From the sequence record JN673056: DNA of 64,000 nt. One strand, written 5' to 3'. This DNA comes from Escherichia phage PhaxI. The notes below the pieces were generated by a model. The model searched no databases. It saw only the letters and a list, made by a program, of their open reading frames with translations, and was not told the origin of the DNA. This document shows, one piece after another, positions 3,429 to 45,258 of the stretch. Within the stretch, counting starts at the first letter, position 1. Each line of letters starts with the position of its first letter. The translations under genes were made by a program, and so were the position numbers.

Positions 3429-3896
3429 TTATAACAATCGTTTGGTTTTGGGTTTGCCCATGAGAGTGATATTGACATTTATTCCCGCTTTCTTCATGCG
3501 CTTGATCATGTCTTGCGTCCCAGTAGACGAACCATCCCATAATGCAATTCCAAAGACCCTCAAGATCTTTTTGCTTTGCCACGATAGAGCATTGTCAGCA
3601 TATCTTGGGTTGCGTTGATTCCCTGCGCTTTCCCATAATAATGTATGGTAATTCTTAGGAATTGCCATCGGGGTGATATGGACATAATTGATTTCACACC
3701 AATCACGGGATATCAGGTCGACACCCACCGCTTCGCCTTCTATAAAAGTTTCGATCTCGTGCGGATCTAACAGTTCATCCAGTTTGGTGAATATTTTGTC
3801 CCGTTCGGTTATAGAACGGGAACCCGTTATAAGAACGATATACTTCTTCATAGAACTCACAGCGCCCCAAGATTGCTGATGACGTACAGGCTGCAT
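3429..3896 (-). CDS. Rossmann-like protein with DprA/SLOG-like motifs
   Basis: 155-aa ORF; motifs ITGSRS and WDGSSTGT resemble DprA/SLOG-family nucleotide-binding folds; assignment by motif only. Confidence 0.35.
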   Translation of the reverse strand: MQPVRHQQSWGAVSSMKKYIVLITGSRSITERDKIFTKLDELLDPHEIETFIEGEAVGVDLISRDWCEINYVHITPMAIPKNYHTLLWESAGNQRNPRYADNALSWQSKKILRVFGIALWDGSSTGTQDMIKRMKKAGINVNITLMGKPKTKRLL

Positions 3897-40540: not shown

Positions 40541-42811
40541 CTCAAAGGGGAGAGGACTTTTCAAATTAGCTGGGCTGCGGTAAAGTATTAAACACGAGGG
40601 AAATAACACAGTGGGAGTCGGGTTTGCAGCCCAAAACCAGTTAACCCTATTCTCAGGGCTGTTGATAGAGCGTAATAGCACCCTCGCTGGTGTCAGTGGA
40701 CGCACTGACGTCGAGACGAAACTCCTGTGTAGCGTGATAGCTCAGAAAACGAGAGCACCCGTGCAGTCGACACACATATAAGGGAGTCGGGGCGCTAATC
40801 TCCATCACGCGACAACATTATGAATCTCATAGAGGGTTCATAATGTTGCGTCAAAGGGCAACAAGAGGATTCCTGTTGGTTGAATTAACTTGATTCATAG
40901 TTCTGCTGATCTTCCCGGATTCAGAAGAACACCGACAGGACGAGGCCGGATGCGTAAGTTCCGGCAAATCGATGGTGAGGTGGTGCATTGATGACACGGG
41001 GTAGCGCTCAGAAGTGTGGTTCGATTCCGCACCCTCGCCAACAAAAATAAAAGGTTTTATCAATAACGGGTTACAAAGTATAGTTAACTCACTGAACGGC
41101 AAGCTGTTTGAGTCCTGGCCACTCATAGCGATGTGAGACCAAGACAGGTAGGTTTAGGACTCAAACAGGTTTTCGTTCTCGTTGCTTGCGACTTTGCGGG
41201 TTTTTAGAAACTGACCAAGCAAATAACTGCTAATGATTCCGAAGTTCTGATGGCGGCGTAATAGCCTATAAGTCAGTGAGGTCTTCCGATTCCTCATAAC
41301 AAAATTCGGCGCACTAAAATAGGCGGGAGGGTGTGATTAATAAGCTCCCGCCGAACAATGAGCGGAGCGTGTACTTAATAGGTCGATGGGAGCAGACTAC
41401 TTCTGAGAAATCAGGAGCGTACATGAGAAGGTTCGAGTCCTTCCTCCAATCCCAAAGCCGTTATATCTGACTGTCCAAAGGGGATAAGCTCCTGAGTAAG
41501 CAGAGGTGGGTTGCCTAAGTCAGATGGGATGTAAGGTCAGCGCTGGCTAAGCATTTGGGTTCGACTCCCTAAAGCGGCTCCACATCTTTGAGGGCATTCC
41601 GCGTCAGACGCGAGACTGTATGGAGTTTCAGGAGAAAGGCAACTTAAATCCGAGGCAGTAATGCCCTATGAAATATCGGAGCCTGTTGTACACTGAGTGC
41701 CCTCAAAGATGTGTCTCACAGCGCATCAGTTTGCAGTTATGCAAGCTTCAATAAGTTAAAACGCGCCTCGGGCGTTATGGGATAAAGCCTTAAACAGTGG
41801 AATCCCCAGGGCTAGCAATCCCTGTCAAAGAAGTAGCCGTGTGGGGGTTTGCCCCCACAACGCAAATCGAAGTTCTTTGGGTATATCTTTTAACCCTCAA
41901 GGTCTGTACACAGAAGTGGCCGTCCCATGAGTAAGTTAGGCGATATACAACATGTTGGGTCGAACCTGTTAAGCCCAGAGAACTTCGATTTGCGTACTTG
42001 AGAGAGCGTTGTATGAAATAGGGCAATGCCTTGCAGACCTCGACGCCTACACATTCTAGACACTGGTGGGCGCTGGCGAAGATCTCAATATAAGCTGGTC
42101 ATCAAGGGTAGCTCCCTGACCGGACGAACAATGAGAGGCCGAACTAAGGGGAAACCCGAGACAGGCGCAGTATTTTCAAGTTCGCAAAATGAAGAGCATT
42201 AAAGAACTCGCAAAGGACCTGAAAATTGGTATCCCTGGCTTGTACCACTGAGTGTTCTTCATCTTTGGGTGATTCTATGTTGTCGGGCTATCAACCCATG
42301 CTTGCTGGAGCAACCAGCGGCTCTGAATCAACCAGCCAGCCTCGTTTGGTCCGAGCGTTAGAGGACAAGTTGCTTCTGTATGGAAGCTGCGAGTTGTAAC
42401 ATTTGGTTGCAACTTTGATGGCTCTGGATTTTATAAACCATGTCTATGGGTGACGCGGGATCTTTAGTACCAGAGCCATCAAAGTTGTGTCCAACCCGAT
42501 CTTGCAAGCCCGTATCCCTGTATGGTCAAGACTTGCAAGTGGAAAGCCCTGGAAAAATAAACGCCTGTGGTGAGGCTACGGTGCAAGCCAAAGACCCACA
42601 GAAGCGCGTTGCCGTGAGGCGCACAAACAGGCATGCATGAACTGATCATGCACAAACGGGATAAATGGTTGAGAGACCTTGGTTGGTCACACAATAAATT
42701 ATGGGGCGATAGTTTAAGGGACAGCTGTCCGGACAGCGAGTCCCCAGAGAGAACAGGCTGGCGGCCAAACCAGCAAGGAGAGGTGAAAATCCTCAGACCC
42801 CGCCAAATTTT
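40541..42811 (+). ncRNA. ORF-poor structured region with tRNA 3'-half-like modules and long hairpins; candidate large structured RNA(s) or degenerate tRNA-like genes
   Basis: No credible ORF on either strand for about 2.3 kb; T-arm+acceptor+CCA modules near 41015-41040, 41427-41454, 41555-41582, 42779-42805; GAAA-capped 7-bp helix at 41400-41417; 12-18 bp perfect inverted repeats. Confidence 0.35.
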
Positions 42812-42837
42812 GGCCCCGTAGCTCAGTGGTTAGAGCA
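42812..42837 (+). other. tRNA 5' fragment (acceptor strand plus D-arm) without a matching 3' half
   Basis: GGCCCCG-TA-GCTC-AGTGGTTA-GAGC is a canonical acceptor/D-arm, but no anticodon arm or complementary 3' acceptor strand follows; abuts the endonuclease gene. Confidence 0.5.
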
Positions 42838-42874
42838 GACTAAGTAATACCATGTGTGTTGATTGGTATTACTT

Positions 42875-43516
42875 ATGAAAACTTGTGAATTTTGCTCAAG
42901 GGATTTTGGGACCGTACAAGCATTTTGTTCTCATGTGCGACAGTGTAAACAAAATCCAGACAGAATAATAAGAAACAGGTCTGGGGTTAATAATCCCATG
43001 TATGGTAGGAAGGGTAGTAATCAATTCACCAAAGCTATAAAGTTGGGTTTGGAACCACCTAAAGTTAGGGAAGAAACTTCCCGCGCTATATCCGAAAAAT
43101 TAAAAGGAAAGGCGTGGACACAGGAAAGAAGAGAATCCTTTTCTATGAGGATGAAGGAAATCGTAAAAGAAAATCCTGATTCCTATAGTAGCCACAATGT
43201 GTGTGGTAGGTCAAAAAAGTTTGTGATAGACGGGGTTTTATTTCATTCTTCTTGGGAAGTGGTCTTTGCCAATTATTTGAATAAAAGGTCTTTGGCCTGG
43301 GTGAGAGAAGTAGAATCGATACCTTATATTTGGAAAGGTAAACAGCATTTATACTTTCCTGATTTTTACATACCGGAGTTGGATATGTATGTAGAAGTCA
43401 AGGGGTATGAAACGGAAAGAGATCATGCTAAATGGAGTTGCATTGATAATTTGATAATAATCAGGGAAACTGAGATAAATAAAATTATCTCTGGTGAAAT
43501 TATTTCGGGTCTGTAG
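42875..43516 (+). CDS. homing endonuclease-like protein (zinc finger, NUMOD-like motifs, PD-(D/E)xK-like C-terminus)
   Basis: ATG at 42875; CEFCSRDFG...CSHVRQC finger; NPMYGRKGSNQ and ETSRAISEKLKGK motifs; C-terminal FPDF...ELDMYVEVKG nuclease-like motif; stop overlaps the 5' end of tRNA-Met. Confidence 0.55.
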   Translation: MKTCEFCSRDFGTVQAFCSHVRQCKQNPDRIIRNRSGVNNPMYGRKGSNQFTKAIKLGLEPPKVREETSRAISEKLKGKAWTQERRESFSMRMKEIVKENPDSYSSHNVCGRSKKFVIDGVLFHSSWEVVFANYLNKRSLAWVREVESIPYIWKGKQHLYFPDFYIPELDMYVEVKGYETERDHAKWSCIDNLIIIRETEINKIISGEIISGL

Positions 43517-43583
43517 TTTAATAGGTTAGAACAACGGACTCATAATCCGTCAGGTCTCAGTTCAAATCTGGGTGGACCCACCA
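43507..43583 (+). tRNA. tRNA-Met (anticodon CAT); could equally be initiator or lysidine-modified Ile type
   Basis: Hand-folded cloverleaf: acceptor GGGTCTG/TGGACCC, D-stem GTTT/GAAC, anticodon stem ACGGA/TCCGT with loop CTCATAA, T-arm CTCAG-TTCAAAT-CTGGG, discriminator A, encoded CCA. Confidence 0.85.
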
Positions 43584-43689
43584 AACACAATGAGAGAAAC
43601 TGAAGTGAGAAAGCTCGGTTAAACGAGGGAGTAATTCAGGAGTATCTCACCACTAAATAAACCAGTTGTTCAATAAACAATTGGTGAGT

Positions 43690-43890
43690 ATGATGAAAAC
43701 GTTCGGTGATTTTCTTACTGAGTGGGATGGTCTCGCTACCGACAACAAAGAGATTGTTGAGTTTGTTGAAAAGCGAGGCGATAAGTGGGTTGTCCTTGAC
43801 CACACCAAGACTAAAGTTCTTGGGACACATGACACCAAAGCTGACGCGGACGCCCAATTAAGGGCGATCGAAGCGAATAAACATAGTTGA
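43690..43890 (+). CDS. hypothetical small protein (66 aa)
   Basis: ATG at 43690 with SD GGTGAG; CTAAATA motif about 35 nt upstream; sits inside the RNA island. Confidence 0.4.
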   Translation: MMKTFGDFLTEWDGLATDNKEIVEFVEKRGDKWVVLDHTKTKVLGTHDTKADADAQLRAIEANKHS

Positions 43891-44064
43891 AGGGTTCTAT
43901 ATTATGAAGAATATTTGGGCGGTGATTTCCAACAGAATTCGCGCTAGTTGGGAAGGTCGGATGGTGAGCATCAAGAACGGGTCTCATCCAAAAACTTACG
44001 ATCGTTATGATCCTGCCCTGGATCTTCATGCAGAATAAAGAGTGTTTACGAAAGTAAGAATAGA

Positions 44065-44140
44065 GACGATGTAGTTCAGTCGGTAGAACGGTGGACTGTT
44101 AATCCATATGTCGCAGGTTCAAGTCCTGCCATCGTCGCCA
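44065..44140 (+). tRNA. tRNA-Asn (anticodon GTT)
   Basis: Perfect 7-bp acceptor GACGATG/CATCGTC; D-arm GTTC-AGTCGGTA-GAAC; anticodon loop CTGTTAA; T-arm GCAGG-TTCAAGT-CCTGC; discriminator G; encoded CCA. Confidence 0.9.
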
Positions 44141-44824
44141 AATTGAAGTAGAGTATCTCGAAGCGCCTTCGGAAGTGCGAATCGCGCGATAGCTGCCAAT
44201 GTAAGGCTGCAGGATACAGATACCCAGGGGAGTGAGACCTACTTCATACAATTTCAGAAGTGTAGAGGCTACAGTAGTGCGCACCTCACGGAAAGCTACA
44301 CCGGACACTCTGATACAAATCTACCACCGCGTGGATTAGCTGAGGAAGGATGGCCGATGTCCTCAAGCGTGGCCCAGCACGTGGTGGTAGACCAAACACA
44401 GTAAGCGTTGCAGCCAGCTGTGTATAAAATGGGGTGACTCCACATCGGAAACGATGCCCCAACTTCCAGAAATGGTCGGGCGCGAAGCCTGTAAAGTTCC
44501 AGGAGATCTAACCAGAAGGCACTGGTGCCAGTTAACCAATCGGCGCTGATAAGCGCGGGGAGTTGGGCTACGGCAGATCAAATGCACAATCGGGTGTGAA
44601 GCCCGTCCAAATTACGCTCGGTCAAGCAGTCTGTTTGTAGACGGTCGGTGCGGGTTTTGCAAGACCCAAATTGACCATCAAATAGATGAGGCGCGACTCT
44701 CTGGGTTGATCACCAGGGTGCTGAGGTTCAACCCCTCTAACGGACACCAATAAGTCGTTTCGGTCAGGTCAAGAACCCAGATTTAGGTCATGGCTTGGAA
44801 ATTCTTGACCGAAGCGCAGTATAC

Positions 44825-44913
44825 GGAAGGTTGCCCGAGAGGTTTAAGGGACTCGACTGCTAATCGAGTGGGGCTTTTAGCCCCCGAAGGTTCGAATCCT
44901 TCACCTTCCGCCA
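44825..44913 (+). tRNA. tRNA-Ser (anticodon GCT), type II with long variable arm
   Basis: Perfect acceptor GGAAGGT/ACCTTCC; anticodon stem CTCGA/TCGAG with loop CTGCTAA; long variable arm GGGGCTTTTAGCCCCC; T-arm GAAGG-TTCGAAT-CCTTC; discriminator G; CCA. Confidence 0.9.
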
Positions 44914-44916
44914 AAT

Positions 44917-45002
44917 TGCTTCATAGCTCGAGTGGTAGAGCGCAGGAAAGTTTCGAGAGAACAAGGTGCCTGAGGTCACTGGTTCGAATCCAGTTGAAGC
45001 AA
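44917..45002 (+). ncRNA. tRNA-like RNA lacking a foldable anticodon arm (possible Y RNA-like/tRNA-mimic or tRNA pseudogene)
   Basis: Perfect 7-bp acceptor TGCTTCA/TGAAGCA, canonical D-arm GCTC-GAGTGGTA-GAGC and T-arm ACTGG-TTCGAAT-CCAGT, but 35 nt between them contain no 5-bp stem/7-nt loop; no encoded CCA. Confidence 0.5.
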
Positions 45003-45230
45003 TCAGAATAATGAGTGTGACTTCCTGAAGATGAAGAAGGTGTGCATGCCGACTTCATAACAATCTGGGGTTAAAGGAAGTTAAGAAAGCCGGAGGATAT
45101 GCAAAGGTGAAATGCAATAGCTTTTCATTGTCCTGACGGTTTCGGGTTCGATTCCCGACGCACTCTCCCAAACGCCCATTATCAGAAATTGCTGTGAGTA
45201 GTCTTTCCATCCCCACGATGGTTTAACATA

Positions 45231-45258
45231 GCCCGATCAGAAGATCGGGCTTCTTTTG
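45231..45258 (+). terminator. rho-independent terminator closing the RNA island
   Basis: 8-bp hairpin GCCCGATC-AGAA-GATCGGGC followed by TTCTTTTGT. Confidence 0.65.

Follow-up and report, generated by a model that had tools for sequence, protein, structure and literature searches.

We show here that an element on the + strand of Escherichia phage PhaxI has the architecture of a tRNA-like, amino-acid-accepting end without an anticodon. The window analysed, a stretch of 64,000 nucleotides (sequence record JN673056), is from a Kuttervirus (Ackermannviridae), and the element, referred to below as the module, lies inside a 4-kb operon of stable RNAs and tRNAs. The unit is probably ~95 nt long (41360-41454) once a conserved 26-nt leader is counted. 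Our preferred reading, to which we give about an even chance (roughly 0.5), is that the module is a non-decoding, tRNA-shaped RNA that is cut from the operon transcript by host tRNA-processing enzymes. The features of the locus are as follows.

41057-41084, + strand: sigma-70-like promoter, TTATCA-N16-TATAGT, read from the sequence and kept across genera.
41229-41264, + strand: tmRNA-like tag template, GCU AAU GAU UCC GAA GUU CUG AUG GCG GCG UAA UAG, encoding ANDSEVLMAA and two stops.
41323-41353, + strand: hairpin H3, GGCGGGAG-GGUGUGAUUAAUAAG-CUCCCGCC, with a covarying stem and a conserved loop.
41360-41367, + strand: conserved leader GAGCGGAG, most likely the 5′ acceptor strand, from pair probabilities and its identity in both alleles.
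41368-41425, + strand: helix II, CGUGUAC (41368-41374) with GUACAUG (41419-41425), in the MFE and centroid folds of 41360-41457.
41381-41384 and 41395-41398, + strand: weak hairpin IIa, GGUC with GACU, inside helix II like the GAAA hairpin.
41386-41392, + strand: ATGGGAG, the 5′ acceptor strand proposed earlier, matching CTCCAAT at 6/7 positions and absent from the second allele.
Between ATGGGAG and the GAAA hairpin, + strand: linker CAGACTA, from the sequence.
41400-41417, + strand: hairpin IIb, CUUCUGA/UCAGGAG, 7 pairs with one U.G, capped by a GAAA tetraloop, P 0.95-0.97.
Between the GAAA hairpin and the T arm, + strand: 9-nt linker, from the sequence.
41427-41443, + strand: T arm GAAGG-UUCGAGU-CCUUC, with a perfect stem and a compensatory change in the second allele.
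41444-41454, + strand: 3′ acceptor strand CUCCAAU, then C, then encoded CCA (41452-41454), invariant among 8 distinct variants.
41455-41456, + strand: 2-nt spacer from the module CCA to the first base of E2, varying (AA, AC, UU) between fixed flanks.
41457-41582, + strand: E2, a 126-nt tRNA-like RNA with acceptor GCCGUU/AGCGGC and T loop UUCGACU, then U and CCA.

Every motif that an earlier note on this DNA had listed is present where the note placed it, and its T arm, GAAA hairpin and encoded CCA are borne out, the T arm being perfect and the hairpin 7 bp long. Both strands of the 64-kb window were scanned for a T stem of five perfect pairs closing a TTCRANY loop, with 7 nt, any nucleotide and CCA after it; only the module and three genuine tRNAs were found, and all four matches lie on the + strand between 41000 and 45200. 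The combination of T arm and NCCA is not due to chance. Both alleles of the module keep, as in a tRNA, a 7-bp acceptor stem, a T arm whose loop is of the GTTCRANYC type, and a discriminator followed by CCA. The module shares with canonical tRNAs (RF00005, including armless mitochondrial ones) an acceptor stem of 7-8 bp, NCCA and the T-loop consensus, but differs from them in having neither anticodon loop nor D arm, a non-cloverleaf body of ~95 nt and a sub-threshold score.

Folding of the element together with its leader suggests that the earlier 5′ boundary is most likely wrong, and that the 5′ end and the acceptor stem start 26 nt further upstream. In the fold of 41360-41454, GGAG of the leader (41364-41367) pairs with CUCC (41444-41447) at a probability of 0.96-0.99 and G41360-A41361 pair with U41450-C41451 at about 0.7, so that the 5′ acceptor strand of the module probably sits in the 26-nt leader and the GAAA hairpin is probably enclosed by the 7-bp helix II. 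The fold energy is -27.2 kcal/mol with the leader, compared with -19.0 for the earlier acceptor model. The acceptor stem of the leader model has a 2×2 internal mismatch, and the fold z-scores are unremarkable (-1.0 to -1.1). The earlier note had paired ATGGGAG with CTCCAAT; the 6/7 match exists, but in the isolated 69-mer the pairing has a probability of about 0.01, CUCC prefers the GGAG of the leader, and the 69-mer itself prefers UGGGA/UCCCA, which buries the CCA. The match is also statistically light, because almost any 7-mer finds a 6/7 partner within 230 nt; the pairing may be an alternative conformer. In the leader-inclusive fold, the 7-nt linker that the note had put in the place of a D arm is, like its 5′ acceptor strand, probably mis-assigned. 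The 8-bp acceptor end, with G-1:C73, offers at most a tentative lead towards a tRNA-His-like reading.

That the module does not decode, as the earlier note had held, is supported. ARAGORN reported no tRNA at the module, and in an 851-nt search the Rfam tRNA model RF00005 gave no match there even at E<=10; the best Rfam match was tRNA-Sec, at 16.3 bits and E 3.3. When pairs of the GAAA helix are opened, its loop can have 4, 6 or 8 nt but never 7, and none of these loops has U33. None of the folds contained a cloverleaf in which a 5-bp stem carries a 7-nt anticodon loop with U33 and a purine at 37. Because tetraloop-capped helices occupy the position of the anticodon arm, the module cannot read a codon. 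One could still take the weak tRNA-Sec alignment for a trace of an unusual functional tRNA, either of the armless type or with an anticodon loop that departs from the standard, or point to the 45-aa open reading frame that spans the module (41333-41470), and to the hypothetical proteins annotated at the site in some GenBank records, for a small protein gene. This explanation is close to refuted: the tRNA finders and the loop sizes speak against the first half of it, and the coding role of the reading frame is rejected because its frame is shifted by a 1-nt GAAC/GAC indel in near-identical relatives with the window-type allele; in the second allele the frame stops after 14 codons. The 'tRNA-Ser(tga)' of phage Ag3 was considered as a homologue of the module and discarded, as the two have the T arm alone in common.

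A relationship to Y RNA-like families, which the earlier note had raised, found no counterpart among the Rfam matches at E<=10. YrlA, which binds Rsr/Ro60, resembles the module in combining a tRNA-like T arm with the lack of an anticodon, and in its Salmonella host. It differs in being closed by a long Ro-binding stem with no free CCA, whereas the module ends in a single-stranded CCA. In related phages, an alternative long hairpin has a closed architecture as in YrlA.

The module is found in about 117 of 280 relatives, in two alleles: 103 phage records carry the window-type allele and 14 the second. The two have only the leader, the T arm and the CCA end in common and are otherwise dissimilar. 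The leader sequence is the same in both, and the second allele folds independently to the same topology. At the position of the GAAA helix it has a (G)CCCC-UNAUUU-GGGG(C) hairpin, helix II is replaced by a different, relocated helix (GGUGC/GCACC), and its T stem, GGAGG/CCUCC, contains one compensatory change from A-U to G-C. Comparative support for the fold of the module thus consists of two alleles, i.e. two data points; variation within each allele is near nil, and since each barely varies, there is no pair-by-pair covariation for helices IIa and IIb or the acceptor stem. The conservation of the GAAA helix, on which the earlier note had made its reading depend, holds among the window-type phages, where the hairpin is invariant, but not beyond them, as the second allele has another hairpin and about 60% of the relatives, Se-J and maane among them, have no module.

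Among nine window-type haplotypes, only 1 of the 95 sites of the module varies, compared with 2/2 in the spacer, 6/126 in E2 and 8-12% in the upstream RNA; where present, the module is the least variable stretch of the locus. As judged from these alignments, the tRNA-like end of the module is conserved and the module is under purifying selection. At the same time it is optional, and because it is missing from about 60% of the related phages it must be dispensable. The description of the element as a tRNA mimic, given in the earlier note, stands for the tRNA-like 3′ half, which is kept across alleles; that it acts as a mimic is something we infer.

The module is one of several RNAs of similar design. 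At least five anticodon-less tRNA-like units occur at the locus, the named siblings of the module being E0, E2, E3 and E4, each of which has an acceptor stem and a T arm. In E0, E2 and E4, paired bases have changed in a compensatory way between genera, and E3 shows a one-sided compatible change. E2 has one long arm, a GCGC-capped arm at the anticodon position and a T arm; it is 96-98% identical across Kuttervirus and Taipeivirus, with compensatory changes in four pairs. E0 lies upstream of the promoter; many phages lack it or have something else in its place, and in some it is deleted or truncated. The three tRNAs of the operon that ARAGORN calls all have an encoded CCA (3/3). The promoter is kept as TTGTCA...TATAGT in loci from five Ackermannviridae genera, namely Kuttervirus, Taipeivirus, Agtrevirus, Limestonevirus (PP35) and Miltonvirus (phiMAM1), and probably starts a transcript with the tmRNA-like RNA, the module and E2. 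The sole terminator-like site of the operon is at 45230-45251, and none lies between the promoter and the module or E2.

Such surroundings also suit another origin, in which the module is a by-product of recombination, a chimera of an H3 duplicate and the 3′ half of a tRNA, or a tRNA-derived pseudogene or cassette, that spread recently in Kuttervirus and has not yet decayed. H3, whose stem covaries and whose loop is kept in phiMAM1, a lambdoid prophage and a phage-plasmid, has an insertion slot directly 3′ of it that holds the module, E2 or another element, and the module is polymorphic for presence and absence. The leader is alike to the 5′ arm and loop of H3 at 14/17 positions, a score reached by 24 of 2000 shuffles, and the phage tRNA-Ser(GCU) has almost the same T arm as the module. 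There is tRNA wreckage elsewhere in the operon, including a tRNA 5′ half at 42812-42845 that abuts an HNH gene, as well as the deleted or truncated E0. A functionless, recently spread cassette is conceivable in a region pieced together, as this one is, by duplications and deletions and strewn with fragments of tRNAs. We nevertheless consider this origin unlikely, though worth keeping in mind: the module is the least variable part of the locus while the adjacent spacer is saturated with changes, the diverged second allele retains the CCA, the T arm (with its compensatory change) and the topology, and the adjoining E2 shows true covariation.

How the module might be released is suggested by what is known of tRNA maturation. 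The coaxial helix of acceptor stem and T arm, together with a single-stranded CCA, is the part recognised by RNase P, the 3′-trimming nucleases and the CCA-adding enzyme. In the predicted fold the module has the architecture of an RNase P substrate, an acceptor/T-arm coaxial helix with a 3′ NCCA within a longer precursor that also carries tRNAs. Transcription of the + strand would run from the promoter at 41057-41084 to 45230-45251, and the transcript would contain the tmRNA-like RNA, the module, E2, further structured RNAs and real tRNA genes. Since acceptor stem, T arm and CCA are what these enzymes recognise, we propose that they excise the module, which would yield a small, stable RNA. Through the same cuts, the tmRNA-like RNA upstream would acquire its 3′ end, and E2, 2 nt beyond the module, its 5′ end. 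Both the transcription from this promoter and the processing by tRNA enzymes are steps that we infer; a literature search returned no study of cleavage of the module or of accumulation of a small RNA. The same processing logic has a eukaryotic parallel in MALAT1, where, as Wilusz, Freier and Spector are said to have described in 2008, a cut by RNase P makes the 3′ end of the upstream non-coding RNA and frees mascRNA, a small tRNA-like RNA bearing CCA. There the processing was shown by experiment, whereas for the module it is a proposal.

Among phages, RNAC and RNAD of T4 have tRNA-like ends. Like the module, they are small RNAs other than tRNAs, encoded by a virulent enterobacterial myovirus within its tRNA cluster, and are presumably matured together with the tRNAs. 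They differ in that the locus described here has at least five units, which are cassette-like and vary between close relatives. Also called species 1 and 2 stable RNAs, RNAC and RNAD come from the T4 tRNA region and have no known function (PMC3014915).

About 120 nt upstream of the module, on the same predicted transcript, is the tag template, with AUAACU immediately 5′ of it. The orphan tags follow the pattern AND..(L)(M/A)(A/V)A with an upstream AUAA frame-setting motif. Beyond Ackermannviridae, where the template is conserved, it occurs in lambdoid prophages and phage-plasmids as well; apart from weak tmRNA and tRNA-Sec matches, Rfam finds nothing else at the locus. It is previously unnoticed and is missing from the exhaustive 2014 ssrA survey of phages; a literature search for any tmRNA or ncRNA described from Ackermannviridae or from the late regions of lambdoid phages returned nothing but ARAGORN citations, that survey and svsR, a prophage sRNA with no relation to the template.

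This neighbour raises the question whether the module has a role in trans-translation, either as a surrogate tRNA-like domain (TLD) for the tag RNA or as an SmpB-titrating 'TLD-only' decoy. Like the TLD of a tmRNA, its anticodon-less body combines acceptor stem, T arm and CCA with a helix that takes the place of an anticodon arm. An unrelated Klebsiella phage-plasmid shows the same order, with a tRNA-like unit downstream of a tag RNA. A phage-encoded precedent that shares the anticodon-less body is the 'TLD-only' RNA of mycobacteriophage DS6A, and inhibition of tmRNA by such molecules has been reported (PMC4131195). We nonetheless regard a role in trans-translation as improbable. The module lacks a D-loop analogue, and G3:U70 is absent from it and from all of E0-E4. 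G3:U70 and A73 are the identity elements for AlaRS, and G3:U70 is the defining acceptor feature of the tmRNA TLD. In the module, position 3:70 is G.A in the earlier model and C.A in the leader model, and the discriminator is C, not A. Unlike the tmRNA TLD, the module is closed on itself and does not enclose the tag; both acceptor strands lie downstream of it. It is dispensable for the conserved tag RNA, which is kept without the module, and without any nearby T arm, in Ag3, maane and the lambdoid prophage L033. No conserved complementarity or covarying intermolecular pairing was found between tag RNA and module.

Other ways of completing a tmRNA were also examined and rejected. A one-piece tmRNA ending in the module or E2 has no complementary 5′ strand near the transcript start, and variation of the transcript 5′ leader is independent of the presence of E2. 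A permuted or two-piece tmRNA with E0 as acceptor piece fails because E0 itself supplies the 5′ strand that closes it, and its position upstream of the promoter and its patchy occurrence also speak against it. An apparent covariation between E0 and SL1 is accounted for by a local hairpin in E0, and a duplex search of E0 against the tag RNA gave only uninformative long duplexes. It is a long shot that ribosome rescue is split or re-wired in enterobacterial phages, with an orphan tmRNA message domain and exchangeable anticodon-less tRNA-like RNAs, serving as acceptor partners or as SmpB/EF-Tu decoys, that redirect or block host trans-translation.

Returning to the module as an excised, non-decoding RNA, our guess is that the free RNA ties up a factor, from host or phage, whose target on tRNAs is the acceptor/T-arm half. 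Overlapping with such a role is the idea of an anti-defence decoy, an accessory mimic of the tRNA end that soaks up a hypothetical immunity effector of the host, directed at acceptor/CCA ends or T arms of tRNAs. A variable, cassette-like distribution at a hot spot with alternative inserts is the pattern of accessory counter-defence loci, and the conserved part of the module is precisely acceptor stem, T arm and CCA. We hold this to be doubtful, as the argument is purely inferential and the mechanism weak, since a single small RNA would have to titrate an enzyme stoichiometrically.

Ackermannviridae are among the most-used biocontrol phages for Salmonella, E. coli and Klebsiella, and the 2-4 kb beside their tRNA genes are unannotated or filled with dubious tiny ORFs. 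At least part of this stretch encodes conserved structured RNAs, a family of tRNA look-alikes and a tmRNA-like tag template, and the look-alikes retain the end of the tRNA that enzymes recognise while dropping the end that decodes. If they are processed and stable, they would enlarge the small class of phage tRNA-like RNAs to which T4 RNAC and RNAD belong, and would provide a system for studying the function of such RNAs that is tractable because natural variants with and without the module exist. They would also point to possible interference of these phages with tRNA biology or ribosome rescue.

The window belongs to a Kuttervirus (Ackermannviridae, Vi1/CBA120-like), and its region 41000-42000 has matches in 270 phage records, with 99% identity in Salmonella phages FSL SP-063 and Sajous1. 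The module lies within ∼4 kb (41050-45250) in which, both strands considered, an HNH gene is the only credible large ORF. On the + strand, tRNA-Met, tRNA-Asn and tRNA-Ser were called by ARAGORN, and a fourth, odd tRNA at 44917-45002 was added by Rfam. Because a sigma-70-like promoter and the sole terminator-like site on the + strand bracket the module, it looks to be inside a single long stable-RNA/tRNA operon. The ARAGORN-called tRNAs of the operon also encode CCA, and the next tRNA-like unit, E2, starts 2 nt past the CCA of the module. Apart from the module, the operon region has the following features:

40974-41040, tRNA-like unit E0, 67 nt, just upstream of the promoter, with A73 and no encoded CCA
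41057-41084, sigma-70-like promoter TTATCA-N16-TATAGT
41057-41355, core of a tmRNA-like tag RNA (also at L025 8474, L027 8355, L033 3480-3665 and L034 2480-2650)
41229-41264, tag template, ∼120 nt upstream of the module: GCU AAU GAU UCC GAA GUU CUG AUG GCG GCG UAA UAG, preceded by AUAACU
41457-41582, tRNA-like unit E2, 126 nt, cloverleaf-like, with a GCGC-capped arm at the anticodon position and an encoded CCA at the end
44629-44749, tRNA-like unit E3, ∼120 nt, with a 7-bp acceptor stem, a T arm, and A73 then CCA
44917-45002, tRNA found by Rfam only (48.7 bits), with normal acceptor stem, D arm and T arm, and the 3' end TCA, not CCA
45013-45170, tRNA-like unit E4, ∼158 nt, with a 7-bp acceptor stem, a T arm and UCCCA at the end
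45230-45251, + strand, terminator-like site

All the motifs that the earlier note listed for the module are present at the positions given there:

41386-41392, ATGGGAG, taken there as the 5' strand of the acceptor stem
CAGACTA, between this strand and the GAAA hairpin
41400-41417, hairpin CTTCTGA-GAAA-TCAGGAG
CGTACATGA, between the GAAA hairpin and the T arm
41427-41443, T arm GAAGG-TTCGAGT-CCTTC
CTCCAAT, then C, then CCA at 41452-41454

A scan of both strands of the window found a perfect T arm followed by 7 nt, N and CCA only in the module and in three genuine tRNAs. All four sites are on the + strand within 41000-45200, and the combination is not a product of chance. No fold of the module contains a 7-nt anticodon loop, ARAGORN makes no call, and Rfam gives no match at gathering thresholds, the best match being tRNA-Sec with 16.3 bits (E 3.3 in an 851-nt search with E≤10). 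The earlier note is therefore right that the module is not a decoding tRNA; to call it a tRNA mimic is fair as a structural description but does not demonstrate a function. Among known kinds of RNA, it belongs with the TLD-like RNAs and the tRNA-like stable RNAs of phages.

The observation as a whole is real, but its 5' end was probably mis-bounded. The proposed 5' acceptor strand carries little statistical weight, as nearly any 7-mer has a 6/7 partner within 230 nt. In the isolated 69-mer, the proposed pairing has a probability of ∼0.01, and the predicted fold puts UGGGA against the terminal UCCCA instead. The original boundaries are probably wrong. Comparison of relatives with and without the insertion places the start of the cassette 26 nt further upstream, at GAGCGGAGC. 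The fold of 41360-41454 has an energy of -27.2 kcal/mol, compared with -19.0 for the earlier model. Its acceptor stem pairs GA..GGAG of the leader with CUCC..UC (P of 0.96-0.99 for the GGAG/CUCC core). The other elements are helix II (CGUGUAC/GUACAUG, 7 bp), hairpin IIa, which is weak, the hairpin with the GAAA loop, the T arm and a free CCA.

Among 280 phage records with a syntenic upstream protein, 103 carry a module whose core is of the window type, 78 of them without a difference over 61 nt, and 14 (sal1, SP1, KWBSE43-6, bering and some Klebsiella phages) have a diverged second allele. The slot of the module, directly after the hairpin H3, differs in content between relatives: it holds E2 alone in Se-J, a different ∼150-nt element and E2 in IME250 and MK-13, a 13-nt remnant in HMGUkp5, and nothing in Ag3, maane and phiMAM1. 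The two alleles have the leader, the T arm and CUCCAAUCCCA in common, while the remainder is unalignable. Between them the T stem shows a compensatory A-U to G-C change, and four second-allele variants, folded independently, each adopt the same topology, with an acceptor from the leader, GGUGC/GCACC as helix II and a hairpin GGC-GUGA-GCC. Since the second allele has a (G)CCCC-UNAUUU-GGGG(C) hairpin where the window type has the GAAA helix, conservation in related phages does not extend to the GAAA helix itself; what both alleles keep is a hairpin at its position.

The main rival explanation is that the module is a recently spread, functionless chimera. In nine window-type haplotypes, only 1/95 sites of the module are variable, against 2/2 sites of the 2-nt spacer that follows its CCA. 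Both this contrast at the junction of CCA and spacer and the structural convergence of the second allele weaken the rival. The variable sites amount to 6/126 in E2, 8-12% in the upstream RNA and 13/36 in the tag codons. Coding by an overlapping 45-aa ORF was rejected, as near-identical relatives have a GAAC/GAC indel that breaks the frame. Between the leader and the 5' arm and loop of H3, 14/17 positions agree, a score equalled by 24/2000 shuffles; this likeness hints at an origin of the module by partial duplication of H3 and gain of the 3' half of a tRNA. What is shown for the module is its architecture, how it is conserved and the context in which it lies.

Other units of the operon, namely E0, E2, E3, E4 and the Rfam-only tRNA, also combine a T arm with an acceptor stem that closes the unit, and lack an anticodon loop. 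E0, annotated as 'tRNA-Ala' in one GenBank record, has a D-arm-like segment and a short hairpin where the anticodon arm would be. Its slot is polymorphic: it may be empty or deleted, or be occupied by E0, by a tRNA-like unit of 150 nt or by a form that has the helix CGGGG-UAGA-UCCCG. E2 is 96-98% identical across Kuttervirus and Taipeivirus, with compensatory changes at four pairs. E3 and E4 flank tRNA-Ser and are conserved in Agtrevirus, where the stems of E0 and E4 are maintained by compensatory changes; the T stem of E4 has a compensatory pair change, and the E3 acceptor is maintained in MK-13 by a one-sided compatible change. Similar units are found in Limestonevirus and Miltonvirus. The Rfam-only tRNA ('tRNA-OTHER' in GenBank) has a 22-nt 'anticodon loop' able to close into a GAGA-capped stem. 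Because a tetraloop-capped helix replacing the anticodon arm recurs among these units, a one-off accident is an unlikely origin for the module.

The GCGCAGGARAGYTTCGRRAGAACAAGGTGCCTG of the Rfam-only tRNA occurs again in a lambdoid prophage (L033 ∼3805-3839), ∼190 nt downstream of its tag-RNA core. The annotated 80-nt 'tRNA-Ser(tga)' of Shigella phage Ag3 (L025 9631-9710; also L028 10113-10192) has an anticodon loop CCUGAGG without U33, able to form a 7-bp stem capped by a 3-nt loop, and its T arm is closely similar to that of the module. It may be another anticodon-less tRNA-like RNA, not a decoder.

The tag template translates as ANDSEVLMAA followed by two stops; the tag of E. coli tmRNA is ANDENYALAA. 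It is aligned by the Rfam models of permuted tmRNA (20.9-29.8 bits) and of alpha-tmRNA (24.7 bits; E 2.5e-5 with 701 nt searched), but no score reaches a gathering threshold, and ARAGORN does not call the tag RNA. The tag is constant at 10 codons, its changes are synonymous and conservative, and stops, double in Kuttervirus, stand at its end. All examined Kuttervirus, Taipeivirus, Agtrevirus and Miltonvirus loci have it (variants ANDSEVLMAA, ANDDVVLMAA, ANDNTFLAVA and ANDNAYLMVA); Limestonevirus PP35 lacks it. The core of the tag RNA consists, in order, of the promoter, a short leader, a covarying stem CUGUUUGRG...CYCAAACAG, a conserved pseudoknot-like segment, AUAA(N)U, the tag, a hairpin and H3, whose stem covaries and whose loop GGUGUGAUUAAUAA is conserved. 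There is no T arm within the core.

The same core, with the tag ANDDVVLMAA, is present in 590/5426 complete E. coli genomes, and in lambdoid prophages it is flanked by Q/tR' and the holin gene. Plasmids of E. coli and Klebsiella have it too; the single plasmid examined, a 109-kb Klebsiella plasmid taken to be a phage-plasmid, has an E4-like unit and tRNA calls downstream of the core. An exhaustive survey published in 2014, covering 543 phage genomes, detected ssrA in mycobacteriophages only, and named Bacillus phage G and the 'TLD-only' DS6A from outside its dataset (PMC4131195). Neither tRNAs nor non-coding RNAs are mentioned in a review of the Ackermannviridae from 2024, and we found no earlier report of this tag RNA in the literature searched.

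A search for a tRNA-like domain belonging to the tag RNA found none. No such domain was recognised in cis, G3:U70 is in none of E0-E4, and neither long-range acceptor pairing nor a covarying intermolecular helix was found. Since no such link was found, and since the tag RNA is present in genomes without the module and without a nearby T arm, the module is not its obligatory partner.

Further structured segments surround these units. A long hairpin with a perfect 16-bp closing stem (41583-41713) is replaced in six loci (L002, L009, L012, L013, L015 and L018) by an insert with a 14-bp closing stem, inside which are a 7-bp GCGC-capped helix and a T arm (GGCGGGTTCGAGTCCCG). In architecture, such a closed tRNA-like domain without free CCA recalls YrlA-type Y RNAs; no Y RNA family is among the Rfam matches. 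Between the hairpin region and tRNA-Met, the gammaproteobacterial sRNA STnc100 matches above the Rfam gathering threshold in Taipeivirus (L004 2444-2658, L005 2501-2714, L006 2385-2599) and partially in Ag3 (L025 9144-9253), with no equivalent match in the window. A long near-perfect inverted repeat at 42395-42506 (AACTTTGATGGCTCTGG ... CCAGAGCCATCAAAGTT), partly kept in Dickeya phage PP35, is the source of spurious miRNA-family matches on both strands. A conserved structured segment at 42698-42800, common to PP35 (L026 8650-8765), has a hairpin CUGU-CCGG-ACAG that is compensatorily changed to CCGU-CCGG-ACGG in PP35, and a hairpin GAGG-UGAAAAU-CCUC followed by CCCCGCCAA. At 42812-42845, the 5' half of a tRNA, which starts canonically (GGCCCCG-TA-GCTCAGTGGTTAGAGC-A-GACT...), leads into a 10-bp hairpin and then the HNH endonuclease gene (ORF 42863-43516). 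Its 3' half was not found, and it is probably a tRNA gene split by insertion of the homing-endonuclease gene.

The module is most likely a non-decoding tRNA-like RNA of ∼95 nt. Selection keeps its acceptor/T-arm helix and CCA, which are determinants for RNase P, 3' trimming nucleases, the CCA-adding enzyme and EF-Tu-type binders. Because the module is in an operon of CCA-encoding tRNAs and 2 nt from the next tRNA-like unit, the most economical mechanism would be that the tRNA maturation machinery cuts it out of the operon precursor. This cutting would at the same time generate the 3' end of the tag RNA upstream and the 5' end of E2. MALAT1/mascRNA offers a parallel to such excision. Another is provided by RNAC and RNAD, small RNAs of the T4 tRNA operon (PMC3014915). 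Transcription, processing and any activity of the module as a free RNA are inferred. Since its distribution is optional, allelic and cassette-like, an accessory role is suggested; an example would be that the module occupies a factor that binds tRNA acceptor ends, in counter-defence or in titration of SmpB/EF-Tu. More surprising than the module is the system around it, with several anticodon-less tRNA-like units and an orphan, widespread tag RNA.
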